A DNA stretch of 64,000 nt from Puniceicoccales bacterium (GCA_031257405.1 JAIROS010000017.1:34046-98045); one strand, 5' to 3'. Positions 1-64,000 are shown, counted from the stretch's first letter. The notes: generated from the letters alone by a model not told the origin. Program-made: numbers and translations.

Positions 1-1239
1 GGCCAAACCCACGATTTCAAGATCATCAAAATCAATCTCGAGCGCAAAAATATCGTTATATCCCGCCGCGAACTCATCGAGGAAGAGCGCAAAGAAAAGC
101 GTTTCAAGGCGATGACCAGTATTCAGGTGGGGAATATTTGCCGCGGTGTGGTCAAGAACATTACGGACTACGGGGTATTTGTGGATTTGGACGGGCTCGA
201 CGGCCTGCTGCACATTACGGACATGTCCTGGGGACGGATTTCCCACCCCGCTGAATTGGTACGGGTTGGGGAAGAGATCGAGGTCATGGTTCTCGAGATT
301 GATCCGGAGAAGGGGCGGGTCGCGCTAGGGATCAAACAGACCAAAAATAACCCCTGGGACAACATCGAACACCGCTATCCCATTGGGAGTCGGGTGAAGG
401 GTAAGGTGGTTAATCTCGTTCCTTACGGTGCGTTTATTGAGTTGGAACCGGGCGTCGAAGGTCTGATCCACGTAGCGGAAATGTCCTGGACCAAGCGCAT
501 TAACAAGCCGAACGAGCTTCTAAAGGTGGGCGACGAAATCGAAGCGGCGGTTATTGGCATTGAGAAGGCGAATCAGAAAATTGCGTTAGGGATCAAGCAG
601 CTGGAGGAAAATCCCTGGGAAATGGTCAAGCACAACTATCCCGTAGGCGCGCACATCCGCGGTACTATTCGCAATTTAACGAATTACGGTGCGTTTGTGG
701 AATTGGAGGACGGCATTGACGGGATGATCCACGTTTCGGACATTAGTTGGACGAAGAAGATCAATCAGCCGAGTGAAGTTCTGAAGAAGGGCGACGTTGT
801 GGACGCGATTATTATTGACATTGATCCGGGGCAGCAGCGCATTGCACTTGGCATCAAACAGCTGACAAACGATCCTTGGGAGCACATTGAGACGCTCTTT
901 CAGATTGGCAGTCTTGTTGTTGGGCGGGTGGTAAAAATCACTTCCTACGGGGCATTTATTGAGCTTCAGAATGGCATTGATGGGATGGTACACATTAGTC
1001 AGGTATCCGAGGATCGGGTTGAGAAGATCAAGGATATTTTAGGGATTGGGAGTGAAGTGACGGCGCGTGTCATCAAGATTGATCGCAACGAGCGGCGCAT
1101 TGGGCTTTCGATCAAGGCGGCCAACTACGATGCCAGTGCGCTTGAAGCTGAGATCAAGGCTTACGACAAGTTAAAGAGCGACCAGGAATTGACTAATCTC
1201 GGTGCGATATTTGACAAAATTGACATGGAGAACGTCTGA
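1..1239 (+). CDS. rpsA: 30S ribosomal protein S1, 3' portion (5' end lies upstream of window)
   Basis: Frame 1 is open from base 1 (GQTHDFKIIKINLERKNIVISRRELIEE...) into the 112..1239 ORF. Four tandem S1/OB repeats show the GxVxxIxxYGAFVxL...G(L/M)xHxS pattern. Confidence 0.95.
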   Translation, partial: GQTHDFKIIKINLERKNIVISRRELIEEERKEKRFKAMTSIQVGNICRGVVKNITDYGVFVDLDGLDGLLHITDMSWGRISHPAELVRVGEEIEVMVLEIDPEKGRVALGIKQTKNNPWDNIEHRYPIGSRVKGKVVNLVPYGAFIELEPGVEGLIHVAEMSWTKRINKPNELLKVGDEIEAAVIGIEKANQKIALGIKQLEENPWEMVKHNYPVGAHIRGTIRNLTNYGAFVELEDGIDGMIHVSDISWTKKINQPSEVLKKGDVVDAIIIDIDPGQQRIALGIKQLTNDPWEHIETLFQIGSLVVGRVVKITSYGAFIELQNGIDGMVHISQVSEDRVEKIKDILGIGSEVTARVIKIDRNERRIGLSIKAANYDASALEAEIKAYDKLKSDQELTNLGAIFDKIDMENV

Positions 1240-1245
1240 TTTTTT

Positions 1246-1500
1246 GAAATTATTTTACAATCGCGCCCATTTTTGCGCCAGTGGAAATGGGTTTTCATCG
1301 GGCAGAAATTTTTTGAATTATAAAAATCATTGAGATGAAAATTCGGCATTGGAAATATCCGATCGATGTCGGAAATTTCCATTTTTTTGGAATTATTTTA
1401 CAATCGCAGCTGTTTTTGCGCCAGTGGAGATGGGGTCCTGATTTGAGAAAATTTTATGAAAATTATGGGAATAACTGCCGATCGATGTTCATGGCGAGGG
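1246..1500. repeat. Diverged tandem duplication (period ~143 bp) at the convergent rpsA / ftsL-like junction
   Basis: attattttacaatcgc...gcgccagtgga(a/g)atggg at 1246-1291 recurs at 1389-1434. ccgatcgatgt at 1359-1369 recurs at 1478-1488, inside the 3' end of ORF 1463..1813. Confidence 0.8.
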
Positions 1501-1813
1501 CATTGCGCGTCATGTGCGAACCCTTGTAACTAGCCCACTCGCGCACGTGAAATACGCGTTCCGGGGCACCCGAAAGCGCCAGTAACTTCCCCTTCAAATA
1601 ATAGGCGGTCTGCATCTGCGCGATCCTCGCCAACAACAAAAGCGTCTCACTCTCCAGTACACCGCATTGCGCCTCGATTTTTTTCAAATTATTGGCGTGG
1701 TTAAAGGCCTCTTGGCGGAAGTGGAGCACCCCGAGTACCGCCGCAAAAAATACAAACACAGTGCAGATCCCCAGCGAAATGATCAACTGATAGTTAATAA
1801 ATTGTTTCTTCAT
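1463..1813 (-). CDS. FtsL-like small bitopic membrane protein (positional call)
   Basis: 116 aa with one N-terminal TM helix (LIISLGICTVFVFFAAVLGVL) followed by a coiled-coil-like region. It sits directly downstream of mraZ-rsmH, as ftsL does in dcw clusters. Confidence 0.45.
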   Translation of the reverse strand: MKKQFINYQLIISLGICTVFVFFAAVLGVLHFRQEAFNHANNLKKIEAQCGVLESETLLLLARIAQMQTAYYLKGKLLALSGAPERVFHVREWASYKGSHMTRNALAMNIDRQLFP

Positions 1814-1825
1814 TTTTAATTTATT

Positions 1826-3527: not shown

Positions 3528-3618
3528 CAGGCCCCGCGGCGTAGCCGCGGGGCCTGAGCGCCCTCAGCCCAAGGAGCATAGCTCCTCTTAAGGGGTTCAA
3601 GGGGAAGGAGTCCCCTTG
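3528..3618. repeat. GC-rich palindrome cluster, element A
   Basis: Perfect 13-bp stem with GTA loop at 3528-3556. aggagc-ata-gctcct at 3572-3586. caagggg-7nt-ccccttg at 3598-3618, overlapping the last codons of the PAP2 gene. 3529-3553 is identical to 34905-34929. Confidence 0.85.
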
Positions 3619-4112
3619 GAAATCCCCTTCGCTGGCGGAAATACAAACAATCTATCAATCAAAAATGCAATCGAAAATCCAACAATAACGTCCCGCCAAT
3701 GATGATATTGCCCATAAATTCGACTGTAGGCGGTCAAAGCAGCGAGCACGACCATCGGTGCCCCCCACCTCCACCCGTAGCGCCTGTACAAAAAAAATGC
3801 CCCCTGGAAAGAAGCCGCCGCGTGGCCCGACGGAAAAGATTTCGTCCCCCCATAGGGGCGAACGCCGATCGCCCAATCACCCGTAAAAAATTTTATACCC
3901 TGCACAACGATCACCATTAAAATAAGAGCACCGGTAAATTGCCCGAAGCCCTCCCGATCCCTGCGGAAAATACTCACCGCAAAACCCATACACGGAATGG
4001 CGATTTGTAAGTAATTTCCAGCTATTACCAGCGGTTCTCGACTACCCAAAATAAAAAAAAAGCAGCCTAAAATGGTCAATAAAAATATAATTCTCAAACC
4101 CTGAACACTCAT
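3597..4112 (-). CDS. PAP2-family membrane phosphatase
   Basis: KSFPSGHAA and SRIYGQYHHWRDV acid-phosphatase motifs, multiple TM helices. Start moved to Met67 (4112) because the upstream part of ORF 3597..4310 translates tRNA-Asp. Confidence 0.8.
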   Translation of the reverse strand: MSVQGLRIIFLLTILGCFFFILGSREPLVIAGNYLQIAIPCMGFAVSIFRRDREGFGQFTGALILMVIVVQGIKFFTGDWAIGVRPYGGTKSFPSGHAAASFQGAFFLYRRYGWRWGAPMVVLAALTAYSRIYGQYHHWRDVIVGFSIAFLIDRLFVFPPAKGISKGTPSP

Positions 4113-4164
4113 TTCAGGCCCAGTCTTTACGACATTTCCGCCGGTGTCAAGATTAAAAGTAGGC

Positions 4165-4241
4165 TGGCGGGATGGACGGGACTCGAACCCGCGACCTCCT
4201 GCGTGACAGGCAGGCGCTCTAACCAATTGAGCTACCACCCC
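4165..4241 (-). tRNA. tRNA-Asp (GUC)
   Basis: Reverse complement GGGGTGGTAGCTCAATTGGTTAGAGCGCCTGCCTGTCACGCAGGAGGTCGCGGGTTCGAGTCCCGTCCATCCCGCCA. Cloverleaf with CTGTCAC anticodon loop, GGTTCGAGTCC T-arm and encoded CCA. Confidence 0.95.
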
Positions 4242-4321
4242 CTTTACGCCGAATGATGCTGAAAGTTGCACGCCCATTGTCAAGCTCCGTTTAAAAAATT
4301 GTCGCCCCATAATCAGCTAAA

Positions 4322-4586
4322 ATCCAGCCGGTTCCGATCGCCCTAAAACGGAAAAACTTTCGACTCAAATGGCTCCATGGCTCCAAAATTTTCCACCCAC
4401 CGATGCTCGAAAAAATCCCGATGGCCGGCCATTGAAAAATATCTCCACCGGTAACATCCAGCCGGTTCCGATCGCCCTAAAACGGAAAAACTTTCGACTC
4501 AAATGGCCTCATGGCCCCAAAATTCTCCACCCACCGATGCTCGAAAAAATCCCGATGGCCATTGAAAAATATCTCCACCGGTAACA
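4322..4586. repeat. Tandem duplication (period 134 bp) of the fmt 3' end plus about 20 bp downstream
   Basis: Copy 4322-4456 versus copy 4456-4586: four substitutions and one 4-bp indel (ggcc). The gene-distal copy is a frameshifted pseudo 3' end of fmt. Confidence 0.95.
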
Positions 4587-5481
4587 TTTTTTTCCCCGGC
4601 TTCTGCAGACTACCTATCACAATCGCACTCCGCCGCCCACAACCAATACACCAGCGATCACCATGTAAAAAAATTTGACACGGCTCACAGGAAATATCCT
4701 CAAACCATCGCTCACTCTCAATCTTACAAAACTCCCCGCCTACACCAATCATACAGCCGGGATGGGGCGTCAGTGCGCGGATGCGCCAAATTAATTCCCG
4801 CGCCGGATGATGAAAATTTAACCCCATATCCCCCTTCTCTACCTTCCGACAAAACGTTACCCCCAACGGATCCTGGACTTCCCGCCTAAACGTCCCCTCC
4901 AGCAAAGAATGTAAATTGCGTTTCAAAATTTCCTTTGCGGCCAGCGATAACTTTTGGGTAACGGACGCCACGTTGTCAGCGCTTTCGATCGCCACGGCCT
5001 CCCGATCCAACACGTCGCCGGCATCCATCTCCTTGACCACCTCCATCAATGAAATCCCCGTCTCGGAAACCCCGGAGGCAATCGCCGCTTCAATGGGCGC
5101 CGCCCCACGAAAACGCGGCAGTAAAGAAGCGTGAAAATTAAAAATCCCCCGCCCCGGTAATTCGCGGACCGCTTTCCCTAAAATATGCCCGTACGCCATC
5201 ACCAAAATTAGGTCGCAACCTGACTCCCCCATCCATTTTACCGTCTCCTCCCTAGGTTTTTCGGGGCGAAATAGCGGGATAGAATGTTCCATGGCCCACC
5301 GCGCGACGGAATTGGGTAGTAATTTTTGTCCGCGGCCCGACCTCCGATCCGGCTGCGTCACAACGCCACTCAAAATCCCCCCCCACTCGCTCCCCAACAG
5401 GAGGTGTTCCAACAGGAGGTGTTCCAACAGGGGTAACGCGATGGAATGCGACCCCATAAATATTATTTTTTGCTGCTCCAC
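4477..5481 (-). CDS. fmt: Methionyl-tRNA formyltransferase
   Basis: IIFMGS...VVTQPDRRSGRGQK, NFHASLLPRFRGAAPI (formyltransferase HxSLLP motif), C-terminal Fmt domain. Confidence 0.95.
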   Translation of the reverse strand: MEQQKIIFMGSHSIALPLLEHLLLEHLLLGSEWGGILSGVVTQPDRRSGRGQKLLPNSVARWAMEHSIPLFRPEKPREETVKWMGESGCDLILVMAYGHILGKAVRELPGRGIFNFHASLLPRFRGAAPIEAAIASGVSETGISLMEVVKEMDAGDVLDREAVAIESADNVASVTQKLSLAAKEILKRNLHSLLEGTFRREVQDPLGVTFCRKVEKGDMGLNFHHPARELIWRIRALTPHPGCMIGVGGEFCKIESERWFEDISCEPCQIFLHGDRWCIGCGRRSAIVIGSLQKPGKKMLPVEIFFNGHRDFFEHRWVENFGAMRPFESKVFPF

Positions 5482-18103: not shown

Positions 18104-18856
18104 TTAATAATAATCGTAATAATCGTAATAATAACTACTTCCGCTTCCGCCGGAACTTCCGCTTCCGCCGGGACTTTCGCCCTTGCTGTAATTACTCACG
18201 TATCCAGCGCTGAGTACTCTGGCATCGCTGGGAATCGCCTCGGTAATCAGACTCGTCACATCCGTCATGTCCGCCCGCATCAATTTGCCAAAAACATTAT
18301 TGTCAAACCACTTCACTTGGCCGTCGAGAAAGGCAATAAAGCCACCCTTTCTCCCAAAAACACCTTGCCCTTCATCCCAACTACCGTCGCTATTCAAACC
18401 CCGCGTGTAAATAATGGGGGTGGTATTCGGCGGACAGGAATCGGATAAATTGATGACGATATTGACGCTAAATGTCTCGCCCGAAAAACAATAGGTTGGA
18501 CTCTGACCATCGGCTTGAACAAGGGTATCCTTTGTCGGTTTATTCGACGCTCTCGCCCCCGCATCCGACGAAAAAACGTAGCAATTGGGATCATTTAGCA
18601 GCCCTTCCCTCGCCAATATCTCGGAAAATTCCCTGATACTCCCCACCAATTGGCCACCTCCATTATAAAAATCGCCCTTATCTTCGCGGTACATCAGGTA
18701 AGCATTGGCGATTTGTTTGATGCAATTTTGGGCATTAGTTCTTCTGGAACGCTCCATGACGCCTCCGATGGAAGGCAAAACGAAGGCCATCAGCACGCCT
18801 ATGATCGAAACCACGACGATCAATTCAACTAGCGTAAATCCATTTTTTTTACCCAT
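18104..18856 (-). CDS. Prepilin-type pseudopilin (paralogue 2) with Gly/Ser then Tyr/Asp C-terminal tail
   Basis: MGKKNG|FTLVELIVVVSIIGVLMAFVLP, GGFIAFLDGQVKWF. Tail GGSGSSGGSGSSYYYDYYDYY. Confidence 0.8.
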   Translation of the reverse strand: MGKKNGFTLVELIVVVSIIGVLMAFVLPSIGGVMERSRRTNAQNCIKQIANAYLMYREDKGDFYNGGGQLVGSIREFSEILAREGLLNDPNCYVFSSDAGARASNKPTKDTLVQADGQSPTYCFSGETFSVNIVINLSDSCPPNTTPIIYTRGLNSDGSWDEGQGVFGRKGGFIAFLDGQVKWFDNNVFGKLMRADMTDVTSLITEAIPSDARVLSAGYVSNYSKGESPGGSGSSGGSGSSYYYDYYDYY

Positions 18857-19025
18857 TTTTATTCCAAAATTATCCGCTTTTTAGATTTCATCCGGAGTTT
18901 TTTCGCCGCCACCACTGTCGCCGCCGCCATCATTTGCCCCAAAGTACACGAACTACCGCCACTCGCCATCCGCCGTAAATCCATTTTTTTTACCCATTTT
19001 TATTCCAAAATTATCCGCTATTTAG
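18834..19025. repeat. Junction duplication (period 141 bp) copying the pseudopilin-2 start and upstream region
   Basis: gtaaatccattttttttacccatttttattccaaaattatccgct at 18834-18878 recurs at 18975-19019. The sequence between resembles the pseudopilin-3 3' end. Confidence 0.9.
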
Positions 19026-25873: not shown

Positions 25874-26127
25874 CACAAAAACCGTGCCATTTCATCGGAT
25901 TATTCCCAGTAAATATCCGCCCTAATGGCCACCCGATTTTTATATTTCTTAAACTTGAACACCTTTTTCCTCCTGTCAATCATAAAATTTTCATCAAAAT
26001 TACACCACTCCACTAAAAATTCGCCCCGTTACTCCAAAAAATATTTTCACAGATTTACACAAAAACCGCGCCATTTTATCGGATTATTCCCAGTAAATAT
26101 CAGCCCCGCTACTCCAAAAAATATTTC
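25874..26127. repeat. Composite junction duplication between the birA 5' end and the udg 3' end
   Basis: cacaaaaaccg(t/c)gccatt..atcggattattcccagtaaatat at 25874-25925 recurs at 26058-26108 (period 184). c(g/a)ccccg(t/c)tactccaaaaaatattt at 26022-26047 recurs at 26102-26127 (period 80) and includes the udg stop. Confidence 0.9.
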
Positions 26128-29885: not shown

Positions 29886-29947
29886 TAGTTATATTTTTTG
29901 ACGACAATGACAATAAACAATAAAAAAATACCTGAGTTTTTACTGAA

Positions 29948-33855: not shown

Positions 33856-34075
33856 AAACAAAAATTTTACCCCATCGCCATCCCGCCGTCGACCGTGACC
33901 ACCGCGCCCGTTATGTAACTCGCCCCAGCAGAACACGAATGGGTAATTTGTTCGATGTGGACCGCCGCCGGTTTCCCGCAAATACTACACTTGAGTGATT
34001 CCATAAACAAAAATTTTACCCCATCGCCATCCCGCCATCGACCGTGACCACCGCGCCCGTTATGTAACTCGCCCC
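33797..34075. repeat. Tandem duplication (period 149 bp) spanning the mcsA 5' end, the intergenic region and the fabG 3' end
   Basis: 130-bp copies at 33797-33926 and 33946-34075 differ at about 3 positions. They create a pseudo fabG 3' end and a pseudo mcsA start (ATG complement at 34002-34004). Confidence 0.95.
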
Positions 34076-34762
34076 TTCGGAGCATAAAAAATCCACGGCG
34101 TGGGCGATATCTTCGGGAGTCCCCATGCGCTTCATGGGAATCAATTTTTTGGTTTCTTCAATAATTTTTTCGGACAGCGCGGCGGTCATATCGCTTTCGA
34201 TGAACCCGGGCGCCACTACGTTGACGCAAATCCCGCGGGAAGCGACCTCCTTCGCCACCGACCTGCTAAAACCAATCATCCCCGCCTTCGCCGCAGCATA
34301 ATTCGCTTGCCCAAAATTACCAGTTTTACCAATAATTGAAGAAATATTTACAATTCTGCCCCAGCGATTCTGTACCATCCCCCGCAAAAGATGTTTGGTC
34401 CAGTGAAAACAGCTGCTCAAATTCGTCCCAATCACATCCTCCCAATCCTCCGTACTCATCCGCATCAGCAACGCATCGCGCGTAATCCCAGCATTATTGA
34501 CCAAAATATCAATCGCACCGTGCTTCGCCAGTAAATCCCCACAAATTAACTCCACTGCCCCCCCGTCGGAAACATCCACGGAAATCGCTCCCGCTTCTCC
34601 ACCACCGGCAATAATCTCCTGGGCAATTTGCTCGCAATTCTTCGAACGACTAACACAAATCACGTAAATCGACCGCCGCGCCAATTTTTTCGCAATCGCC
34701 GCCCCTAAACCACGGCCAGCCCCCGTCACTAACGCAACCCGCTTCTCTCCGACTCCTACCAC
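34016..34762 (-). CDS. fabG: 3-oxoacyl-[ACP] reductase
   Basis: KRVALVTGAGRGLGAAIA (TGxxxGxG), NNAG, SSIIGKTGNFGQANYAAAKAG (YxxxK), ITGAVVTVDGGMAMG. GTG start at 34762 is proposed (249 aa) because the longer ORF runs through palindromic element B. Confidence 0.9.
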   Translation of the reverse strand: MVGVGEKRVALVTGAGRGLGAAIAKKLARRSIYVICVSRSKNCEQIAQEIIAGGGEAGAISVDVSDGGAVELICGDLLAKHGAIDILVNNAGITRDALLMRMSTEDWEDVIGTNLSSCFHWTKHLLRGMVQNRWGRIVNISSIIGKTGNFGQANYAAAKAGMIGFSRSVAKEVASRGICVNVVAPGFIESDMTAALSEKIIEETKKLIPMKRMGTPEDIAHAVDFLCSEGASYITGAVVTVDGGMAMG

Positions 34763-35023: not shown

Positions 35024-37813
35024 CTATCGTCGTCGACAAATCCGTGCGCGTTGCCTCCTTCGTTCCGCTTTTTCGATCTCGGATTCATCCCCATCTTCTG
35101 CGCCTCTGCGGAATATTTTACCCCAATTTAACTTTATTTTCTCAGGTTTATAGGTCGCCTTTTCGAAGGAAGGCCTCTCGTAGTCGTTAGTTAAAATAAA
35201 TTCATCCGGTTTCAGCGTCGGTTCTCCCGCCAAATTGCCCTCCGTAAAGAAGCGACTCAGCTGCGCCGTCTGGGTATCATCGTGGTGGATAATGGTCGGC
35301 GTGATGATATAAATCCGCTCCGTCACACTATTGCCGCGGTTACTCATTTTAAACAGATGGCCGATGAGTGGGATATCTTTCAGGATGGGGATACCGGCGG
35401 AACTGACTTCGTGTATTTCTTTGAAGGAGCCGCCGATAAATAGACTCTGCCCCTCGAAAACCGATGCCTCCGTATTGACCGTCCGCGTCGTGGTACCCGG
35501 ACCACTGGAGCCCTGACGCGGATTAGTAGTAAACCCACCGTCTTGGACCTCAATTAACAATTTAATTTTTGGCATACCGTTGGCATCAAATTCCCCCATA
35601 ATAATATGGGGGACCACCGTTAATTTAGTGGAGACCGTCACGTCGAATAGCCCGCCCGCCTTTGCTCCTTGGGTTTCCACGTAGGCGGTTTCGGACGTAT
35701 CGATCACGGCGCCGATATTATCCAAAGTAATGACCGACGAGCGGATTAGCGTCTGTCCATTGCCGACCTCCTCCAGGATATTCAGCGTTTCGGACATGGA
35801 ATAATTTTTAAATAATTTATCAAAATTCATAACCAAACTCGCCTCTGTGGCATCCAAAAAATTAAAGGAAATGCGCTTCGATTTTTTTTCCGCGTCCGCT
35901 GCTGTGGTACCAGCGCCTCCAGCGGCTACCGCCATACGCCGATTAGCTTCCAATTTGGAACGTATTTTTAGGGAACCGGATTTGGTGATATCCACTACGG
36001 CGATCTCGATTTTCAGCGCATCCCTGGAGACGTCCAGTTGCTGAATAATGCTCTCAATAAAGGGCATATCCTGGCGCTTGGCTTTGACAATAACCGCATT
36101 TAAACGCGTATCAAAGGTAACAAAAATATCGCTCAAATTGAGGGGATTTTTTTCCCCTCCCTGGGGGGCCATTTTACCCACGTCTTTGGCTTCGCTGCTA
36201 TCTTTTTTAGCTTTTTCGGCGTGGTAGGCGGTCCCGGGTATGGCTTTTGCCGCAGTCGCTCCACCGGCCTTCGAATTGTCGATCTGTAACCCAATGCTGC
36301 TCTCGCCGACAGGCCCCGTTATCGCTCCCACCATCTGCTGTAGCATCGTCGCAACACCCGGAATATTCATGTTCCCACCGCGGTAATTGACTATCATATC
36401 GTAGGCCCAAGCGTGTTTCAGCGGAAAAGAACGAATGTCGTACACATTGCTGACGCGTTCGATTACAATTTTTTTAGAAAGTTCTTCTATGAGGGACATG
36501 AGTTTAGGGGGGCCGCTCACCACTAAAATACCGGCGGTTTCCAGGGGTCTGAAGGTCACATTGGAGCTCAAAAATCCGAGCTGCGAAATGACCCTAACCA
36601 GGGTACGCATCTCATCGCGATTCATCTGGTAGACCGACGACGACACTTCGTCGCTCTTGTAAACATACATCATACTGCCGTCAAAAAACCAAACTAATCC
36701 GTAGGCATTGATGATATCTTTCCAGAATTGGTGGGGGGTAACGTTACTAAATTTTCCATTGACGACGTCGGCGACTTTATCGCTCACGATGACGTCCATC
36801 GACTGCATCACACAGAAATTGCGGATTAATTCTTTCAGCTCCTGATTTTTAGCGAAGTGGTAATATTCTGCGGTTTTCCAGGGCAGACGGTCAGCGGGGT
36901 CGCCTTCGGTAAGGGCCATTGAAGTGACTATTTCGACGGAACTCAGGTCGATGAGGGGGGTTATTGAATCGCCCATGACTTTACGGGTTAGCGGAATTTC
37001 GCTAGATTTTTCCTGGGCATTTGCTATTGGCGCCGCTGGCGATACAGCCGCCGCTGGCAATGGTCCTGAAATATTTTCATTTAGTGACGATCCCGAAATA
37101 TTTGTTACTGGCGCTGCAGGCAATATAGCTACCGCAGGCAACGATTCCGGAGCATTTGTTACTGGCGTTGCAGGCAATACAGCCGACGCAGGCGGGGGTC
37201 CTGAAACATTTTCATTTAGCAATGGTCCCGGAGTATTTCCATTTGGCAACGATCCCGAAATATTTGTTATTGGCGCTGCAGGCAATACAGCCGCCGCAGG
37301 CAATGGTTCCGAAATATTTGTTATTGGCAATGGTCCTGAAATATTTGTTACTGAATCCACTGGCAATACAGCTGCCGCTGGCAATGGTTCCGGAATATCT
37401 GTTACAGCTGCCGCAGGCAATACAGCCGCCGCTGGCAATGGTCCCGGAGTATTTCCATTTGGCAACGATCCCGAAATATTTGTTATTGGCGCTGCTGGCG
37501 ATATAGCCGACGCTGGCAATGATCCCGGAGTATCCCCAGCCGGAACCACTCCCGACGCTGAACCCTTGGCCCCCATAGCCCTCTTGGGCCCATCAATAAT
37601 GTATATGTCCTTCCTGTTCTTCGGTATCACTCCCCCCGCCTCCAATCCACTCGATACACCCGCTAACGCTCCCCCAGTAGCCGTAGCCCCCCTCTCGCTA
37701 CCCTCCGCCCTGTGAATTAAATCCGAATCACGGCTCAATAATGCGCAAGAAAATGATAATGCCGATAGGCCACAAACTGTGTAAAAAATCCCCTTCATCT
37801 CCCTAAAACCCAA
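35024..37813 (-). CDS. sctC: Type III secretion system secretin with ~300-aa repeat-rich N-terminal extension
   Basis: N0-like YGLVWFFDGSMMYVYKSDE. SctC hallmark FPLKHAWAYDMIVNYRGGNMNIPGVATMLQQMV. Secretin core ending GIPILKDIPLIGHLFKMSNRGNSVTERIYIITPTII. Confidence 0.85.
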   Translation of the reverse strand: MGFREMKGIFYTVCGLSALSFSCALLSRDSDLIHRAEGSERGATATGGALAGVSSGLEAGGVIPKNRKDIYIIDGPKRAMGAKGSASGVVPAGDTPGSLPASAISPAAPITNISGSLPNGNTPGPLPAAAVLPAAAVTDIPEPLPAAAVLPVDSVTNISGPLPITNISEPLPAAAVLPAAPITNISGSLPNGNTPGPLLNENVSGPPPASAVLPATPVTNAPESLPAVAILPAAPVTNISGSSLNENISGPLPAAAVSPAAPIANAQEKSSEIPLTRKVMGDSITPLIDLSSVEIVTSMALTEGDPADRLPWKTAEYYHFAKNQELKELIRNFCVMQSMDVIVSDKVADVVNGKFSNVTPHQFWKDIINAYGLVWFFDGSMMYVYKSDEVSSSVYQMNRDEMRTLVRVISQLGFLSSNVTFRPLETAGILVVSGPPKLMSLIEELSKKIVIERVSNVYDIRSFPLKHAWAYDMIVNYRGGNMNIPGVATMLQQMVGAITGPVGESSIGLQIDNSKAGGATAAKAIPGTAYHAEKAKKDSSEAKDVGKMAPQGGEKNPLNLSDIFVTFDTRLNAVIVKAKRQDMPFIESIIQQLDVSRDALKIEIAVVDITKSGSLKIRSKLEANRRMAVAAGGAGTTAADAEKKSKRISFNFLDATEASLVMNFDKLFKNYSMSETLNILEEVGNGQTLIRSSVITLDNIGAVIDTSETAYVETQGAKAGGLFDVTVSTKLTVVPHIIMGEFDANGMPKIKLLIEVQDGGFTTNPRQGSSGPGTTTRTVNTEASVFEGQSLFIGGSFKEIHEVSSAGIPILKDIPLIGHLFKMSNRGNSVTERIYIITPTIIHHDDTQTAQLSRFFTEGNLAGEPTLKPDEFILTNDYERPSFEKATYKPEKIKLNWGKIFRRGAEDGDESEIEKAERRRQRARICRRR
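37010..37540 (-). repeat. In-frame imperfect tandem repeats inside sctC (Pro/Ala-rich; higher-order period 216 bp)
   Basis: AAPITNISGSLPNGNTPGPL occurs at aa 107-126 and 179-198. Interspersed (E/G)PLPAAAVLPAAP(I/V)TNIS units span aa ~93-266. Confidence 0.9.
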
Positions 37814-38356: not shown

Positions 38357-39157
38357 ATGTTCGAGAAAATTAGTAGTAAAAACAATGAGAAAATTAAGTT
38401 TATCGACAAGCTCAAGAAGTCATCGCACCGGAAAAAATTCGGTCTATTTCCCGTCGAAGGATTTCGAGAAATTTCCCGCGCCCACAGTAGGCAATTCCTA
38501 GCGGAACTCATCTTTTGCGAAGAATATTTCGCGGGACGAGACGATTTTTACGCTTTGGTCGAGCGGCTTGGGCGGGAGAATGTAAAAATCACGCAGGTCA
38601 CGCCCGATGTATACCGGAAGATCTCCCTCTGCGAAAATGGCAGCGGATTGATCGCCCTTGCGCGCGCGAAAAATGTGGCCATCGATGCTTGCACGCCGCC
38701 CGCAAACGGACTTTTTGTTGCGACGGAAAATATCGAAAAACCGAGTAATTTAGGGGCCATTATTCGGACAGCGGAATCGGCTGGCGTCGACGGCGTAATC
38801 GTCCTCGGCCGCTCCACGGAAATCTTTAACCCGCACGTCATCCGCAATTCCCAGGGCGCCGTTTTTTTCACGCCCATTTACCACGCTTCAACGGAGGAAT
38901 TCCTAGCATTTATGCGCCGAAATCAGCTATCGCTCTACGTCACTTCGCCCGGTGCGCAAAGGCTATATTTTGAGGAAGATTTTCGCGGCGGGACGATTAT
39001 TCTTGTGGGTTCGGAGAAGGGGGGGGTATCTGATTTTTGGTTGCGGGAGAGACGGACGATTCGGATTCCCCAGAATGGTTTTTCGGATTCGCTGAACGTC
39101 TCCGTTGCGACGGCTATTGTGTTATACGAGTGTGTTCGCCAGCGCCTAGCGAAATAA
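38357..39157 (+). CDS. SpoU/TrmH-family RNA 2'-O-methyltransferase
   Basis: NLGAIIRTAESAGVDGVIV, LVGSEKGGVS and IPQNGFSDSLNVSVATAIVLYE motifs. Confidence 0.85.
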   Translation: MFEKISSKNNEKIKFIDKLKKSSHRKKFGLFPVEGFREISRAHSRQFLAELIFCEEYFAGRDDFYALVERLGRENVKITQVTPDVYRKISLCENGSGLIALARAKNVAIDACTPPANGLFVATENIEKPSNLGAIIRTAESAGVDGVIVLGRSTEIFNPHVIRNSQGAVFFTPIYHASTEEFLAFMRRNQLSLYVTSPGAQRLYFEEDFRGGTIILVGSEKGGVSDFWLRERRTIRIPQNGFSDSLNVSVATAIVLYECVRQRLAK

Positions 39158-39405
39158 ATCCGCGCATATTTTTGGGCCAAACAATAAAGTAAAATTTCGG
39201 ACCAAATAACAAAGTAAAATGCCACCCACTCGGTTCCATTCTACCCAATACAACAAAAAAATAAAAAAATTACAGCCAACGCCCTTTTGTAAAACGAAAT
39301 CCGCGCATATTTTTAGCCAAAAAACAAAATAAAATTTCGGACCAAATAACAAAGTAAAATGCCACCCATTCGGTTCCATTCCGCTCAGTACAACAAAAAA
39401 ATGAA
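39156..39405. repeat. Tandem duplication (period 141 bp) between the trmH-family stop and ffh
   Basis: aaatccgcgcatattttt...aaatttcggaccaaataacaaagtaaaatgccaccca(c/t)tcggttccatt at 39156 and again at 39297. The copies diverge toward their 3' parts. Confidence 0.9.
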
Positions 39406-39455
39406 CCCACACCCGCCTTAAAGTTTGACGGAAATCCGTTTACCCCTATGGAAGT

Positions 39456-43426: not shown

Positions 43427-44199
43427 TCCGATTCCCGTGGGAGCATTAAAATCGACCCCGAAAGCAGCTTTGTACACTCGTGCCGCGGACGAAATATGAT
43501 GTCATCGGGCACGCCCCGCTCCACAATCTCCCCCCCGCTCATAACGCAAACGCGATCCGCCATCCGCTGTAAAATCGAAAAATCGTGGGTAACCAGCAGC
43601 ATCGCAAAACCTAAATCCTCCTGCAATGCCTTTATTAAAGCCAAAATTTGGTCCTGCAGGATGACATCGAAAGCCGTCGTCGGCTCATCGGCGATGAGTA
43701 ATTTGGGGCGATTCATCAAGGCCAGAGCAATCATAACACGCTGCTGCATCCCCCCACTCAATTCGTGGGGATAGGCCCGAAAAATTCTCAGGGGATCCCT
43801 AAATCCGACCTTTCTGAGCATCCCCAACGCACGATCCTTCCGCCCTAGACCCTCCGCAATCTCGAGTAATTGGTAGCCCACCGTCAGAACGGGATTCAAT
43901 GCCCAGGCGGGTTCCTGAAAAATATGGGCGACTTTGTGGCGTCGAATGGCGACCAAATCGGGGTACGGCAAATTTAAAATCGGCTGCCGATCTACAAAAA
44001 TTTCCCCAGAAATGGTGACATTGGGCCGCAAACGCATGATACTTTCCGCGATCAGCGTCTTCCCGCTGCCACTTTTCCCCACCAACGCGAGGGTTTCTCC
44101 GGCGGCAATCGCAAAGGAAATTCCCCGGATTGTGGGATGTTCCGAATTGGTAAAACTTATAGTCAGATTCCGGACCGCAAGATAGGCACTATTCCCCAT
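43423..44199 (-). CDS. ABC transporter ATP-binding protein, DppD/OppD-like (singleton)
   Basis: Walker A GKSGSGKT, signature LSGGMQQR, Walker B LLIADEPTTAFD. Its stop shares the CTAG at 43423-43426 with the rsmI stop. Confidence 0.85.
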   Translation of the reverse strand: MGNSAYLAVRNLTISFTNSEHPTIRGISFAIAAGETLALVGKSGSGKTLIAESIMRLRPNVTISGEIFVDRQPILNLPYPDLVAIRRHKVAHIFQEPAWALNPVLTVGYQLLEIAEGLGRKDRALGMLRKVGFRDPLRIFRAYPHELSGGMQQRVMIALALMNRPKLLIADEPTTAFDVILQDQILALIKALQEDLGFAMLLVTHDFSILQRMADRVCVMSGGEIVERGVPDDIIFRPRHECTKLLSGSILMLPRESD

Positions 44200-44650
44200 A
44201 ATTTTTTTTGAATAATTATCCCCAAATTATTTAATATTGCCAACGATGTCGAGCCGATATATATGAGGCGCATTTTCCGGCGGCAATCGCAAAGAAAATT
44301 CCCCGGACCGTGGGACGTTCCGCGTTGGTAAAACTTATAGTCAGATTCCGGACCGCAAGATAGGCATCACTCCCCATAATTTTTCTGAACAATTGTCCCC
44401 AATTATTTAACATTGCCAACGATGTCGAGCCGATATATATGAGGCGCATTTTCCGGCGGCAATCGCAAAGGAAATTCCCTGGACCGTGGGACGTTCCGAA
44501 TTGGTAAAACTTATAGTCAGATTCCGGACCGCAAGATAGGCATCACTCCCCATAATTTTTCTGAACAATTATCCCCAATTATTGAACATTGCCAACGATG
44601 TCGAGTCATATATATACTACCCCCAATTATTTAACGTTGCCAACCATGCC
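44101..44650. repeat. Three tandem ~177-bp copies of the promoter region plus the first ~34 codons of the ABC ATPase gene
   Basis: ggcggcaatcgcaaag starts at 44101, 44279 and 44455. ATG complements lie at 44197-44199 (real gene), 44375-44377 and 44551-44553. The third copy decays after about 44615. Confidence 0.95.
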
Positions 44651-44684
44651 AAGCCATCTAATCTTACGCAAATAACGATTATTT

Positions 44685-51648: not shown

Positions 51649-52002
51649 TCACTCCTTCCACACGGTCTCCAAATATTTCCAAAAAGAGTCGTACTGCTCG
51701 AACATTTGCTCGTCGGTGATCGGCAATTTATTGCGGTAGACAAAGTCGGAAAGCGTGTGTTGGTGTAAAATGTAGGCGCAGAAAACGATGTCCCCACGCA
51801 TCTCGAAGTACACGCGCAGGTCGCCGATGCGACAGCGGTAAATATCCGCACTGCCGCGGCGAAATTTTTTTACTTTTAGCAACTCCTTCCGCAGACATTC
51901 GTCGCAATAGTCGCTCAATTGGCCGATAAACTGGAGTTGAGCCATTTTGTCCATTTTGTTAAATTCCATTAAACTTTGGTCGCTAAACGTAATTTGGTGC
52001 AT
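51649..52002 (-). CDS. RelE/ParE-superfamily toxin-like protein with ~35-aa C-terminal extension (no antitoxin seen)
   Basis: ITFSDQSLMEFNKMDKMAQLQFIGQL ... IYRCRIGDLRVYFEMRGDIVFCAYILHQ matches the RelE/ParE fold pattern. Start moved to MHQITF (52002). Confidence 0.6.
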   Translation of the reverse strand: MHQITFSDQSLMEFNKMDKMAQLQFIGQLSDYCDECLRKELLKVKKFRRGSADIYRCRIGDLRVYFEMRGDIVFCAYILHQHTLSDFVYRNKLPITDEQMFEQYDSFWKYLETVWKE

Positions 52003-52208
52003 AACGCGGCTATGAGCGTATGGATTTTTCGGTTCTTGCAACGCTATAGCATTTTTTTTGATGGGAGCGATGCATGGTTTCAGCGCCACTATTTTATAAA
52101 AAAAAAGTAAACTTTCCTTAAACACAATCTAACTTATAACGCGGCTGTGGGCGTATGGGTTTTTCGGTTCTTGCAACGCTATAGCATTTTTTTTGATGGG
52201 AGTGATGC
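52001..52208. repeat. 73-bp direct repeat (period 135 bp) in a divergent promoter region
   Basis: ataacgcggct(a/g)tg(a/g)gcgtatgg(a/g)tttttcggttcttgcaacgctatagcattttttttgatgggag(c/t)gatgc at 52001-52073 and 52136-52208. Copy 1 abuts the toxin-like ATG and copy 2 contains the nuclease start. Confidence 0.95.
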
Positions 52209-54706
52209 CCGGTTTTGTCGCAAATTCCTTTGCCGATATAGAAGGCGAATTTTTACAAATCGTTTCGCGATTCGACCCCCTCTCGCCGCTACCTTCTGCC
52301 ATAATTTGTCCGTCGGCGGTTGAGATAAAATTTGTAAAATATTTTTTCGCAACGCAGCAAATATCCCTCGCCAACGCACATTTTTACACATCTCAAACAT
52401 TAATGGCGGCGCTATGGGGGCAAATTTTCCCGGGAGAGCACATTATGGATGGCCGCGACATTAAATTACTGGTGCAAAACGGTGGATTTTTTGGCGATCA
52501 CCGGGTACTCGCAAAAATTTTCCTGGAGGAATTTCCCGCCGAAATTGATGCATGTTTACAAAAAGTAATCAATTTTTTAACACAACAATGCGTAAATTTT
52601 CGTTGGAGCACACCTCGGCAAGCGCTACAAAAGATGGCGGCGGCGGCGCAACCGATCTTCGAGTCCTGTGTTTTACTGGGGTACTCCTCGCCAAACCCCT
52701 CTCCATCGGATTTTCTCGCATTTGTAAAAAAACTTTCTAAAAACGTAATATATTTTACTTTTAATCGGAACGACGGCGAACGCAACACCCTTAACGCACT
52801 GGAAATGACTTTCGGTCGTGCGCAAAATATTGAAAATATTAGTCAAAAAAGGGAAAATTTTAACACAAAATTTTCAATTGTAGGGGATTCGGTCGACGCC
52901 GCGCGATGCTGCAGTACCGCCCTCGCCGCCGCTGAAATAGCGGGAACAACGGCGATTATTTGTTCGGCGGACGCGCATGCCCAGCTGGTCGCCCACGAAC
53001 TCGATGCCCTCCGCATTCCTTACCACAGCGGATTTTCGAGAAAAATTTTTGACGCCACCGATAGCGTCGTTTCCGCCTGGTACCAATTTCAACTGCATGG
53101 AAATTTTGAATGTTTTTTACATTTTTTAGACATTATTCGCGCCCAAAATCGGCTACCATTTTCTGGGGATGACTACAAATATTTGTCTTTTTTGTTTCAC
53201 CGTTACCCCATCGATTCCGTCGAACGCCTGGCGCCCTGGATCGAGGATCCGCAAATCAACGCCATTCTTCTGCGCTATCCGCTCTTGCCCGGGCGGGCTA
53301 CCGTGGATGAATTTGTCCAAAAAACGGCGCCCATTTTCCCGGAAATCCGCGAAAAAATATCCCATTTTCCCTCCGATTTTTGTGTACAAAAGGGTGCATT
53401 TTTGGAGTATGTTTTAGCCGTTCACAGAGCCGCGAAACCTCCCGCCAAAGAACCATTTTTCTGCCCCATTTTCATCGTGGACATGCCCACGGCGACCCGG
53501 CTCCACTTCGAACATATCATTGTATTTTGCGACAAAACGGCCCCCAACGATGCCGCTGCGCCCGATAATTTTGAAGATTTATTTCCACTTTTAAGTGCAA
53601 AAAATTTACATTTAATCGCAGAAAAAAACAATATCCCCATCTACTTCGCCCAACATTATAAAAATATTCACCGCCAAATTCTCGACGCCCCCGCGATCCA
53701 AATGCTGTCCCGATTTTTCGTTTTTCCGGCAGCGGATTACGATCCGGCGCCCTACGAAATTCTGAGTAAAATCAACGCCCAGCGGAGTAATAAACTCGAA
53801 AATTTTGGGCCATTTGAGTACGCCGCGGGGAGCCTGGACACGGAAAATTTATCCATTCCGATCACCGCCATCGAACGCGCTTTCACTGACCCCGAAGCCA
53901 TTTGGTACCGCTATGTCGCCCAAAATGATCGCCCTCCATTGCGATTTGAAAAACAAAAATTTGACGGAATTTTTACCCACTCGCTCCTCCACTGGCCCAG
54001 CGAAATTCGTCCGACGCGGGAAGCATTCCGAGCCCACATCGCCCAAAAACAAAAGCACCGGCAACACATTTTGGAACAATTTTCCCCCGGTTTACTCCTC
54101 CGAGACACCCTAAATGGCGAAAATCCCTATATTTTAGCGGAAAAAATAGTGCAATGGGACGATTTTCCTTTTATGGCGAGCGAGTGCGATTTGCAATCGA
54201 CTTTTCCCCTGGAAAACGGCATAACTATTCCGCTCCACGGGCGCGCCGACTGCATTTTGTCGCAATTCCCGCTTCGCCGCCGATTCCACAAAGATAATGC
54301 CGACAATCGCCTGCTCGTTATCGACCTTAAAACTGGCTCTGCGACGCAAAGTGACCTCCTAAAATTCGCCAAACCGTTCGCCGGCCTGCCCCCGTCGCTA
54401 TCGGGCCTGCAACTCGTCCTTTACGGCCTCATTTTGGAAAATTTCGGCTACAAAAATATCCGGCTCCTCATCCTCAATGGCGACCCTTACGAACGGGCGG
54501 AACCCATCGCGCTCCGCAGTATTACACAGGGCGAGAATTTCCCATTCATCAAGAATTTCTTAAAAAATTTAATTGTCAAGGGTATTTTTGGCTATGGCGA
54601 AAGTAATTCATTCCAAGGGAGGCATTTTTCCTCGCCGGCCGCCGTCATCCCCCCCAACAACGCCGTCATCCGCGAAAAACGAAAAAAACTTTTCTGGACT
54701 TTTTAA
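52196..54706 (+). CDS. AddB-like PD-(D/E)xK nuclease with Walker-less helicase-like N-terminal region (orphan)
   Basis: C-terminal nuclease motifs GIFTHSLLH, LHGRADCI, LLVIDLKTG and QLVLYGLIL. No GxxxxGK(S/T) anywhere in the protein. No addA/uvrD-like partner adjacent. Confidence 0.6.
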   Translation: MGVMPGFVANSFADIEGEFLQIVSRFDPLSPLPSAIICPSAVEIKFVKYFFATQQISLANAHFYTSQTLMAALWGQIFPGEHIMDGRDIKLLVQNGGFFGDHRVLAKIFLEEFPAEIDACLQKVINFLTQQCVNFRWSTPRQALQKMAAAAQPIFESCVLLGYSSPNPSPSDFLAFVKKLSKNVIYFTFNRNDGERNTLNALEMTFGRAQNIENISQKRENFNTKFSIVGDSVDAARCCSTALAAAEIAGTTAIICSADAHAQLVAHELDALRIPYHSGFSRKIFDATDSVVSAWYQFQLHGNFECFLHFLDIIRAQNRLPFSGDDYKYLSFLFHRYPIDSVERLAPWIEDPQINAILLRYPLLPGRATVDEFVQKTAPIFPEIREKISHFPSDFCVQKGAFLEYVLAVHRAAKPPAKEPFFCPIFIVDMPTATRLHFEHIIVFCDKTAPNDAAAPDNFEDLFPLLSAKNLHLIAEKNNIPIYFAQHYKNIHRQILDAPAIQMLSRFFVFPAADYDPAPYEILSKINAQRSNKLENFGPFEYAAGSLDTENLSIPITAIERAFTDPEAIWYRYVAQNDRPPLRFEKQKFDGIFTHSLLHWPSEIRPTREAFRAHIAQKQKHRQHILEQFSPGLLLRDTLNGENPYILAEKIVQWDDFPFMASECDLQSTFPLENGITIPLHGRADCILSQFPLRRRFHKDNADNRLLVIDLKTGSATQSDLLKFAKPFAGLPPSLSGLQLVLYGLILENFGYKNIRLLILNGDPYERAEPIALRSITQGENFPFIKNFLKNLIVKGIFGYGESNSFQGRHFSSPAAVIPPNNAVIREKRKKLFWTF

Positions 54707-62325: not shown

Positions 62326-62345
62326 GTTATTTTTATTTTTATTTT

Positions 62346-62804
62346 TTAAAGGTCACTTATTTTGGGCGCGAGGAATAGCAGAGAAAATGCCGCCAGACAC
62401 AGCGACGCGTCGGCGACGTTGAAGGCCGGCCAGTGATAAATTTGTAAATTAATATTAACAAAATCGATAACAAATCCCCGATAAAACCGATCCAGCGCGT
62501 TACTTAAAACCCCGCCCAACAGCAATCCAAAGGTGACGGGGCGCTCGTAAACCCCGAAAAAATGCCGCTTCCAAAGGAGAATGCCCACAAAAATAATACC
62601 CAAAATGGCGAGCCATGGCGCGCGATCGGGCAACAAACTCCACGCGCAACCGGTGTTATGGGCGAGCGAAAAACTTAGCCACCCCCCACAATTAATACTC
62701 CCCTGCGGCAAATAAATTTCGGCTAAAAATTTCGTCCCCTGATCGCATAAAATAGTCCCGAAAACGAAGCTCCCTAGAATAAATTTACTCCTCCGTTTGT
62801 TCAT
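62346..62804 (-). CDS. lspA: Lipoprotein signal peptidase II
   Basis: DQGTKF, NTGCAWS and FNVADASLC motifs. Start moved to MNKRRSKF (62804). Confidence 0.9.
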   Translation of the reverse strand: MNKRRSKFILGSFVFGTILCDQGTKFLAEIYLPQGSINCGGWLSFSLAHNTGCAWSLLPDRAPWLAILGIIFVGILLWKRHFFGVYERPVTFGLLLGGVLSNALDRFYRGFVIDFVNINLQIYHWPAFNVADASLCLAAFSLLFLAPKISDL

Positions 62805-63477
62805 CGTAAGCCCCGCCGAAAACATCCTCCGTCTCGTCCGCGAAGAGCGCATTCGTCTGTTTTTCCCTTCTCAGCGCCATTTTTCGTTCGAATTCCTGCT
62901 GCCCTCTCACGGAATAACGCGCGAATGGGACGGCTTCCAGGCGTTCGGCGGCAATTTCCTCGCCGGTAATTTCACAAATTCCATAGGTTCCGTTGACAAT
63001 TCGGTCGATGGCGTCCTGCACCTCCTTTTTTTTATCGGCCTCCTTTCGCAGCAAACTCCAAGCGAACTCGATTTCCGGCGGTACCGCGCCCACCTTATTA
63101 TCCAAAACTTCCCTCAGTTGCAAAAGTTTATTATAATATTTTTCATATTTTGCATCGACTACACCTTCCTTTACTTTGGGCGGCGAAATTTTATTGATTG
63201 GGCTAAAACCTAGGATATCGGCGACTCCTGCGGCTGAGATAACCGTATTTTTATTTTCGATTAAAACTTTTTCGATTAGCTTTTGCTTATTTTGAATTTT
63301 GATGCGATTTTCCTGTTCCCGCTGCTCATTTTCGCGATTGAGGAGGACACGCCTGAGGTCCTCCATCGAAAAGTAAATACCATCCGCGTCGGATGACGGA
63401 TTGGCCTGCCTCCTGCGATTTTTTAAGGCCCTTAGCAGCGCCTGCATGTCACTTTTTACATTTTCAACCTTGTTCAT
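62785..63477 (-). CDS. DksA/TraR-family protein with a degenerate (Cys-poor) zinc finger and long N-terminal region
   Basis: DAIDRIVNGTYGICEITGEEIAAERLEAVPFARYSVRGQQEFE aligns by eye to the DksA C4 finger region but keeps only one of four Cys. Position upstream of lspA. Confidence 0.7.
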   Translation of the reverse strand: MNKVENVKSDMQALLRALKNRRRQANPSSDADGIYFSMEDLRRVLLNRENEQREQENRIKIQNKQKLIEKVLIENKNTVISAAGVADILGFSPINKISPPKVKEGVVDAKYEKYYNKLLQLREVLDNKVGAVPPEIEFAWSLLRKEADKKKEVQDAIDRIVNGTYGICEITGEEIAAERLEAVPFARYSVRGQQEFERKMALRREKQTNALFADETEDVFGGAYDEQTEE

Positions 63478-63480
63478 GTC

Positions 63481-64000
63481 CTAATTTTTCGAAAAATTTC
63501 CCTCCAATGCGCGCCGACAGCGCTCCGAAATGCCTTTAAATTCCCCATAGTCGACGAGTTTCGGGACGCGCCGCCAACTGCGCTGACAACGCTCCCACCC
63601 GCATAGCGCCGCTTCAACACACGTCTCCCCCTGCGCTTCCATGAGGACAACCTGCGAAATAATGAAAAATTCCGGTAAATCCTTTTCATGTTTTTCCAAA
63701 ATTTTAAACATATCATCGCTGCCTTTGATGATAATTTTCGCGTCGAGTGACTGCCCAATGACTTTATTTTGGCGCAAAATTTCTAATTTTTCGTGAATTT
63801 TTTCGCGGAATTGTATAATCGCCTCCACTTCCGCCTCCTCGGGGAAATCTTCCACCTCCGATACGTCAGGCCAATCCATCAAATGCACGGACGCTGCCCC
63901 ACGACCGCCCGGGAAATAATCCATCGCCTCGTCCGCCGTAAACGTCAAAATGGGGGCCAACAGACGTGTGAGCGCCCCGAAAATGATCGCCATGGCCGTC
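63481..64000 (-). CDS. ileS: Isoleucyl-tRNA synthetase, C-terminal part (continues beyond window end)
   Basis: The frame stays open to base 64000. Anticodon-binding/C-terminal region with a CxRxW...C-type zinc-finger remnant (CGWERCQRSWRRV...ISERCRRAL). Classical ileS-lspA neighbourhood. Confidence 0.88.
   Translation of the reverse strand, partial: TAMAIIFGALTRLLAPILTFTADEAMDYFPGGRGAASVHLMDWPDVSEVEDFPEEAEVEAIIQFREKIHEKLEILRQNKVIGQSLDAKIIIKGSDDMFKILEKHEKDLPEFFIISQVVLMEAQGETCVEAALCGWERCQRSWRRVPKLVDYGEFKGISERCRRALEGNFSKN

Follow-up and report, generated by a model that had tools for sequence, protein, structure and literature searches.

The stretch described here is a 64-kb part of a 98,351-bp contig of a Puniceicoccales metagenome-assembled genome (MAG; GCA_031257405.1, JAIROS010000017.1:34046-98045; protein accessions of the form MDR05906xx), and this whole stretch is called the window. 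Its coding density is 91%. In the GTDB set, the closest relative at species level comes from a termite gut and is likewise a Puniceicoccales MAG, with a McsB identity of 80%. The subject of this report is a series of short-range direct duplications, with periods of 134-184 bp, which are found at nine gene junctions of the window. Ordinary housekeeping genes flank them: rpsA, fmt, two pseudopilin genes, the uracil-DNA glycosylase gene (UDG), birA, def, the thiamine diphosphokinase gene, mcsB, mcsA, fabG, sctC, an rlmB-like methyltransferase gene, ffh, an ABC ATPase gene, and hpf. The duplicated loci and the repeat region of sctC are listed in Table 1.

Table 1. Junction duplications and the sctC repeat region in the 64-kb window (ORF, open reading frame; positions are counted from the first nucleotide of the window)
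Position	Strand	Location	Copies	Period (bp)	Identity
1240..1466	.	Convergent spacer, rpsA stop (1239) / stop of 116-aa ORF (1463)	1240-1321 / 1383-1466	143	~77-79%
4318..4587	-	fmt 3' end; clean tandem	4318-4451 / 4452-4581	134	93%
18833..19025	-	Between two pseudopilin genes	18833-18884 / 18974-19025	141	98% (52-nt core)
25874..26126	-	UDG-birA spacer	25874-25922 / 26058-26106; 26010 / 26090	offsets 184 and 80	
29887..30172	+	def / tRNA spacer	29887-30017 / 30020-30161	133-144	97% (3' 73 nt of unit); 66-76% (5' part)
33790..34084	-	fabG/mcsA junction	33797-33926 / 33946-34075	149	97.7% over 130 nt
39156..39438	+	rlmB-ffh spacer	39156-39265 / 39297-39405	141	90% (110-nt core)
44043..44660	-	ABC ATPase 5' end	~3 copies	176-178	93-97%
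51984..52215	.	Divergent-promoter spacer	52001-52080 / 52136-52215	135	86-92% (80-97-nt core); 92.5% for the copies given
37019..37534	-	sctC N-terminal region, in-frame repeats		base unit 27	

An earlier note on this DNA listed ten near-identical duplications, and genuine short-range direct duplications are present at nine of these ten loci. Repeats were searched for with Tandem Repeats Finder (TRF, default settings), a gap-free direct-repeat search, local alignments, and a self-BLAST census, in the 64-kb window and the contigs of its relatives. TRF alone reports two of the ten loci, 33797-34075 (period 149) and 44098-44615 (period 176, 2.9 copies), as well as small in-frame repeats and the sctC repeat region. 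The other loci were recovered by the gap-free search, local alignment, and the census. Short-range direct high-scoring segment pairs number 19 in the window and 0 in each of 20 block-shuffled windows, which served as the chance control. The same census of 80 other verrucomicrobial loci (1.15 Mb), used as background, gives about five comparable repeats, and the remaining matches there are mostly paralogy between coding domains, such as a 228-bp ClpC repeat. The density of duplications in the window is about 40-fold above that of this background. The pattern is real, non-random, and biologically generated, and the duplications are recurrent and locus-specific, as the note had held.

Self-BLAST of the window shows no direct repeats with an offset >200 bp outside the S1-domain repeats of rpsA and the coding repeats of sctC, no inverted self-matches, and a single dispersed match of 26 nt. 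No sequence is common to the units of different loci in this census. The tenth claimed locus, 31500-31623, did not hold up. Its pair 31500/31591 has an offset of 91 and consists of 36 AT-rich nt at 86% with a local-alignment score of 44. It falls below the BLAST cut-off and its spacer test is not significant; being indistinguishable from chance, it is not counted. The pair 27736/27905, tried as an extra locus, represents two similar tRNA genes.

The description of the copies as near-identical applies to a core of 49-130 nt at most loci (90-98% identity), but the rest of each unit is strongly diverged. The spacers between the cores are the diverged parts of the units, and their homology is detectable at four loci (z = 3.1 to 10.8). 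Spacer sequences are not templated elsewhere, as their longest matches in the window are 9-17 nt, at chance level or within the same locus. The length of the core varies between 49 and 130 nt while the diverged remainder is still homologous at four loci, and therefore the conserved quantity is the period, not the core length. Mismatches in the cores are 51 transitions versus 12 transversions. All four bases and both copies are affected, and there is no adenine bias.

Units include gene ends at most loci, as was claimed, but the 1240, 29887, and 39156 loci are essentially intergenic, with coding ends not clearly included. In the 1240 locus, the 61 nt between the copies is a diverged part of the unit (homology z = 3.1). 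In the 4318 locus, the copy 4452-4581 contains the real 3' end of fmt (stop 4477) plus 25 nt, and a pseudo 3' end makes up the copy 4318-4451; the match of fmt to TIGR00460 is full-length. The hexanucleotide TAACAT is found at 4452 and 4582 as a microhomology. The core of the 18833 locus corresponds to 28 nt upstream of the downstream pilin gene and its first 8 codons, and the other 89 nt of the unit is a diverged pseudo-copy of the C-terminal tail of the upstream pilin (z = 4.7). The unit of the UDG-birA locus is ~184 bp. Two offsets are seen there because one copy has an internal deletion of ~104 nt, and the spacer homology has z = 5.6.

The 33790 unit runs from the last ~70 nt of fabG across an 11-nt spacer into the first ~65 nt of mcsA. 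Here fabG is completed by the upstream copy and mcsA is begun by the downstream copy, leaving both genes intact. Between the two genes lies the chimeric ORF 33867..34085, in which the N-terminus of McsA is fused to the C-terminus of FabG. The 39156 locus carries a 7-nt microhomology, AAATCCG, at 39156 and 39432. A 25-bp tandem duplication (39170-39220) is nested within each copy of its 141-bp unit and is absent from the sister contig L085; its presence in both copies indicates that the small duplication is older than the large one. The 44043 unit spans ~70 nt of upstream DNA and the first ~105 nt of the gene for the ABC ATPase, which starts at 44199. This array yields pseudo gene starts and the ORF 44231..44449, and contains a nested 48-bp repeat at its right end. 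Both chimeric ORFs that had been pointed out, 33867..34085 and 44231..44449, do exist. In the 51984 locus, the pieces beside the new joint are scrambled.

Smaller in-frame repeats are present in fmt (15 bp, 5394-5431), in an ankyrin tail (12 bp, 6908-6953), and in a pseudopilin tail (9 and 18 bp, 18108-18180), in agreement with the earlier note. The sctC repeats, given there as 216 bp, are not specifically of that length but follow multiples of 27 bp (54, 81, 108, 135, and 162), with higher-order periods of 135 and 162. The sctC gene of the sister contig L081 has a private in-frame duplication of 126 bp. The N-terminal region of sctC is the sole coding region that tolerates duplications of such size.

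Contigs of at least three sister lineages were retrieved by exact-protein look-ups. They show 86-92% nucleotide identity to the window and among themselves, with a divergence at 4-fold sites of K ~0.25. At ~88% identity, they represent species-level relatives, not strains. Two contigs used below, L081 (sample 3300042618) and L169 (sample 3300042643), come from independent assemblies. A scan of metagenome contigs for McsB found distant relatives only (<=45% identity), which are no help for polarisation.

Comparison with relatives, as had been proposed, shows four window loci to be single-copy in sisters. The fabG/mcsA junction is single-copy, with an 11-15-nt spacer, in L081, L082, and the more distant L001. 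The 52001 locus is single-copy in L083 and L084, lineages which are 86% identical to each other, and the 18833 locus is single-copy in L086. The 39156 locus is single-copy in L085, with AAATCCA at both ends. Apart from these four loci, the UDG-birA (25874) locus is single-copy in L081. Wherever a single-copy relative exists, the structure in the window is just what a tandem duplication across the junction would give. Besides fabG/mcsA, this applies to the fmt 3' end, the pilin/pilin junction, the 5' end of the ABC ATPase gene, the divergent spacer at 52001, and the rlmB-ffh spacer.

Relatives carry duplications of their own. In L086, the spacer between the convergent xerC and methyltransferase genes holds a private array (4065-4514), in which a 147-bp unit occurs three times at 93% identity; the window is single-copy at the corresponding site (15779-15889). 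The last ~35 nt of the internal units of this array is a diverged version of the gene 3' end with a 9-nt deletion. L087 has private junction duplications of 152 and 161 bp, and L081 has junction duplications of 146 bp (the def-tRNA spacer) and, privately, of 152 bp. L169 has a duplication of the rpsA spacer, orthologous to that of the window, with an offset of 184. Copy number thus differs among relatives, 1 versus 2 at four window loci and 1 versus 3 at the xerC spacer of L086. Duplications are both gained and lost across the lineages, and the comparative evidence for this turnover is good. The nine window loci and the six loci in relatives give 15 pooled events, whose periods are 134-184 bp with a median of ~147; the six loci in relatives fall at 146-184 bp.

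Two spacers are duplicated in more than one lineage. For the rpsA spacer, identity is 77% and 86% between the two copies of one lineage, versus 57-64% between orthologous copies of different lineages. The def-tRNA spacer is duplicated in both the window and L081. In the window, the 3' half of its unit is homogenised (97%); in L081, a 5' stretch is 90% identical over 52 nt and the 3' halves are only 51% alike. The higher similarity within than between lineages indicates, as judged from the alignments, concerted evolution of old duplications or repeated re-duplication in place. Under either reading, the process is active and lineage-wide. The suggestion that the copies are recent or homogenised is thereby borne out: some duplications are lineage-specific and two loci show concerted evolution.

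All 15 events are located at gene junctions, and the flanking genes are intact, with full-length family matches. Among random segments of 135-180 bp, 22-27% are not within a single gene, against nine of nine in the window (p ~2e-6). The only duplications of similar size within coding DNA are in-frame and lie in the sctC repeat region. Junction placement, which the earlier note stressed, stands as an observation, but targeting is not required by it. A tandem duplication spares all genes if, and only if, its ends are in different genes, and purifying selection thus predicts the junction pattern without targeting. Most simply, junction placement is survivorship.

The reading preferred here is that tandem duplications of ~135-185 bp of unique local sequence have arisen repeatedly in this host-associated Puniceicoccales lineage, and that each passed through a birth, a filter, and an afterlife. 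This is considered the probable explanation, with substantial room for doubt. The birth would be replication slippage or template switching between short microhomologies ~140 bp apart, by which r-X-r becomes r-X-r-X-r. This signature is seen at two loci, with TAACAT in the fmt unit and AAATCCG in the rlmB-ffh unit (AAATCCA at both ends in the single-copy L085), and such microhomology of 6-7 nt points to slippage or template switching. As for the filter, native sequence would be kept up to the right breakpoint in copy 1 and from the left breakpoint in copy 2, so a duplication would be harmless only with breakpoints in different genes or in spacer DNA. At 91% coding, the survivors would be junction-spanning events, plus in-frame events in the repeat-tolerant N-terminus of SctC. 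Fragments of gene ends and gene starts, and chimeric ORFs, would be passive by-products. The afterlife, which is partly visible in the relatives, would consist of long-lived arrays whose copy number moves between 1, 2, and 3, with internal deletions. Patchy homogenisation by gene conversion or unequal exchange would maintain some parts, and unconverted parts would decay. It can be proposed that a constant period with a high-identity core of variable length results from this combination.

Several facts weigh against this reading. The placement data alone do not separate survivorship from true targeting to gene ends. Inspection of unit boundaries, which the earlier note had recommended, yields clear microhomology at only two of nine loci; at the other seven it is not clear, the joint-proximal parts being diverged. 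Slippage alone should favour short periods, and the proposed birth does not explain the size preference. Among the periods there is nothing between short slippage repeats (9-31 bp) and 126-134 bp, except the deletion-derived 80-bp offset, and none of the pooled events has a period above 184 bp. At four loci where all sisters are single-copy, the joint-adjacent pieces are 35-50% diverged, above the neutral K of ~0.25. To account for this excess, either the sisters must have lost their copies repeatedly or the birth must have been error-prone and have produced filler. Finally, all sequences are from short-read metagenome assemblies.

The size preference leaves some room for a dedicated molecular ruler, which would produce ~145-bp duplications preferentially at gene boundaries, making both placement and period mechanistic. 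Illegitimate recombination between neighbouring DNA-wrapping complexes such as gyrase, or another lineage-specific enzyme, might act in this way. Gyrase wraps ~140 bp and acts at the 3' ends of genes. The tight range of periods (134-184 bp in 15 events, median ~147) and the gap between ~31 bp and 126 bp agree with a ruler, as do the messy or filler-like new joints at some loci and the unit borders at or beside stop codons at 1240, 29887, and 39156. These borders share no common sequence motif, however, and their position can result from the way repeats are detected, since divergence is concentrated in the pseudo-coding pieces. The same size range recurs in the unrelated Ehrlichia ruminantium (mean 138.7 bp) and in VNTR-141, a variable-number tandem repeat (VNTR) of Wolbachia (PMC3287509). 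Against a ruler, no candidate enzyme was found in the window, and the joints at two loci are of the classic microhomology type. A gyrase-like wrapping complex or other factor acting convergently in this lineage, E. ruminantium, and Wolbachia is regarded as a minor possibility, and the ruler in general as rather unlikely. If it existed, spacer DNA, pseudo gene ends, and chimeric ORFs would be the products of a mutational process with quantised sizes that has so far escaped recognition. Maintenance by selection, through doubled promoters, terminators, or 5' leaders, or through insulation of packed or translationally coupled genes, is an unlikely explanation. In its favour, high similarity is found in cores that are mostly spacer DNA, as against diverged pseudo-coding pieces, and the duplicated rpsA and def-tRNA spacers persist in two lineages. 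Yet promoter-like and terminator-like sites in the units are not in excess over shuffles, no Rfam family matches, and units at different loci have nothing in common. The same junctions are single-copy in close relatives with unchanged gene content, and the cores are only 57-74% identical between lineages, which implies no strong constraint.

The nature of the data raises the question of whether a metagenome assembler concatenated strain alleles or overlapping contig ends in tandem. The periods are near the typical read length of 150 nt or k = 119-141, the divergence is concentrated at the new joints, and the Logan contig of the window's own sample (L168, k = 31) breaks inside a duplicated copy. 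This contig is 100% identical to the window and stops 30 nt into a 39-nt run common to both copies of the 39156 locus, as expected if both contexts exist in the reads. De Bruijn contigs hold only k-mers that are present in reads, and a single-copy genome would offer no place for the joint and spacer sequences, which are unique. In addition, the same spacers are duplicated in the independent samples of L081 and L169 with lineage-specific sequence, and many copies are 77-90% identical with indels, easily resolved by any assembler. Three-copy arrays exist, no Ns are present, and the core mismatches are transition-biased as in real evolution. From these sequences an assembly artefact, which the earlier note had named as a possible refutation, appears unlikely, and very little probability is assigned to it. 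Footprints of mobile or site-specific systems are the least credible of the alternatives: miniature inverted-repeat transposable elements (MITEs) or elements like repetitive extragenic palindromes (REPs), att duplications at tRNA genes, or template/variable pairs of diversity-generating retroelements (DGRs). Two loci lie near tRNA genes, an xerC-type recombinase gene adjoins the private array of L086, and the unit length resembles DGR template and variable repeats. However, the repeats do not include the tRNA genes. Each locus has a unit of its own, inverted termini are lacking, and a mobile element is thereby excluded; no family at many loci, terminal inverted repeat, or palindromic core of the kind seen in MITEs, REPs or bacterial interspersed mosaic elements (BIMEs), Correia elements, or mycobacterial interspersed repetitive units (MIRUs) is present. 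Copies are adjacent or 19-135 nt apart, and the gap is unit-derived with nothing inserted; no integrase-bearing element separates them, as an att duplication would have. The mismatches are ordinary and transition-biased, not adenine-specific, and this speaks against a DGR, as does the lack of a reverse transcriptase among the flanking genes and scanned ORFs of the window. ORFs without known function near the loci contain no mobile-element domains, and the neighbourhood of the loci is free of reverse transcriptase, transposase, and phage integrase genes. The earlier note was right that the duplications are not explained by a transposase, a reverse transcriptase, or an att structure.

The tRNA genes of the window comprise a cluster of three (27745-28064) and single genes at 4168-4241 and 30211-30283, and RNase P RNA is found at 8282-8660 (Rfam). 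Two junction duplications lie 40-75 nt from a tRNA gene, and the tRNA genes are outside the repeats. The long ORF 3597..4310 overlaps a tRNA gene, and so its start is called too far upstream.

Other differences between the window and its relatives were observed, some of them around the arrays. The borders of the 176-bp array coincide with contig ends in two sisters, L085 stopping at window position 44052 and L083 beginning at 44735. Such breaks are the only hints at copy-number variation within one population. At 2417|2418 of L087, window position 45812 is joined to 44122, without the 1.7 kb that holds hpf, the 176-bp array, and the 3' end of leuS. This is either a deletion truncating leuS or a misassembly caused by the array. 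A glucosaminidase-domain gene (~0.6-0.8 kb), present in L083 (7133-7906) and L084 (1985-2590), is absent at 51634-51639 of the window; it is a clean loss in the window lineage. In L083, an inverted copy of 86 nt of the hpf-leuS spacer (294-379 / 4024-4109, 86% identity) is present in the lgt-metG spacer, which is enlarged to 307 nt versus 75 nt in the window. Short segments are thus sometimes copied to distant sites in inverted orientation.

A GC-rich element of 78 nt is located between sctC and fabG (34862-34939, - strand), with a partial copy at 3528-3553. Its predicted fold has a closing stem of 13 bp and three triloop hairpins of 7 bp (minimum free energy -75.1 kcal/mol, z = -7.25). The element is 98.7% identical in L081 and L082, with flanks at ~88%. 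No Rfam family corresponds to it (best match tfoR, E = 0.098), and it may represent a structured element, of RNA or DNA, that has not been described before.

The window also encodes a type III secretin and ankyrin-repeat proteins. ORFs without a Pfam or NCBIfam match are found at 52193-54706, 30294-31097, 51649-52125, 37803-38327, and 1463-1813; these ORFs, one of which is 837 aa, are conserved in sister lineages. Over the whole window, proteins are only 92-96% identical to those of L081-L086, with a divergence at 4-fold sites of ~0.25. Such low identity suggests relaxed purifying selection in the lineage, which would be consistent with a host-restricted lifestyle.

Tandem duplication restricted in size (~140-150 bp) and with rapid turnover has its first case in Anaplasmataceae, and the present lineage adds a second one that is phylogenetically independent. 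The occurrence in both Anaplasmataceae and Verrucomicrobiota makes the length preference look general to some host-restricted bacteria rather than a quirk of Ehrlichia. Sisters with 1, 2, or 3 copies at orthologous junctions allow direct study of breakpoints, gene-conversion tracts, and loss rates. The loci show compact genomes gaining spacer DNA, spare copies of promoters and gene starts, and small chimeric ORFs such as McsA-FabG. As a practical effect, they break short-read assemblies and give over-long or spurious ORF calls.

Among known systems, MIRUs are tandem repeats in operon spacers whose ends interact with the flanking stop and start codons; their units are 40-100 bp and belong to one dispersed family. 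The present duplications are likewise tandem repeats in spacers, but each window locus duplicates its own unique sequence. Microhomology-mediated tandem duplication in Escherichia coli has no preferred length near 145 bp and becomes rarer with distance. The 4318 and 39156 loci resemble the products of such slippage or template switching in their r-X-r-X-r joints with 6-7-nt microhomology, whereas several other joints in the window are not clean. The instability of the Portiera type concerns 7-bp microsatellites and is a different phenomenon (PMC3673631).

The earlier statement that no bacterial process of ~140 bp has been described cannot be maintained, since precedents exist in E. ruminantium (PMC3287509, PMC10710844) and in VNTR-141 and VNTR-105 of Wolbachia (PMC3287509). 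For E. ruminantium, TRF lists 201 rows of tandem repeats; their mean period is 138.7 bp, and they make up 6.3% of the genome (PMC3287509, Table 4). These repeats actively expand and contract in non-coding regions between close strains, and their mechanism is listed as an open question (PMC10710844). Similar to the case of E. ruminantium, the window and its relatives have ~140-150-bp, non-coding, locus-specific units with turnover between relatives in a host-restricted bacterium. E. ruminantium is an alphaproteobacterium with ~64% coding, long spacers, and on average 4.8 copies per array (maximum 65), while the window belongs to Verrucomicrobiota, is 91% coding, mostly has 2 copies (maximum 3), and nearly all of its units straddle a gene end. 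According to Collins et al. 2005 and Frutos et al. 2006, changes in E. ruminantium are reportedly the gain or removal of ~150-bp units, and most of its pseudogenes are said to be repeat-associated truncated gene fragments.

VNTR-141 and VNTR-105 of Wolbachia wMel are intergenic, with units of 141 and 105 bp, and vary from 0.8 to 7.3 copies among close strains; their units are ~99% identical, and slipped-strand mispairing with concerted evolution has been proposed (PMC3287509). Each genome has only these two marker loci, whose units carry 23-bp hairpins along with short internal repeats and reach higher copy numbers. In contrast, about ten loci are found in 64 kb here, and a conserved hairpin is not seen in every unit. 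The features tested for the E. ruminantium-Wolbachia type are all present: a unit of ~100-300 bp, junction placement, copy-number differences, and concerted evolution. The junction duplications of the window are long-period intergenic tandem repeats of the E. ruminantium-Wolbachia kind, in a new phylum.

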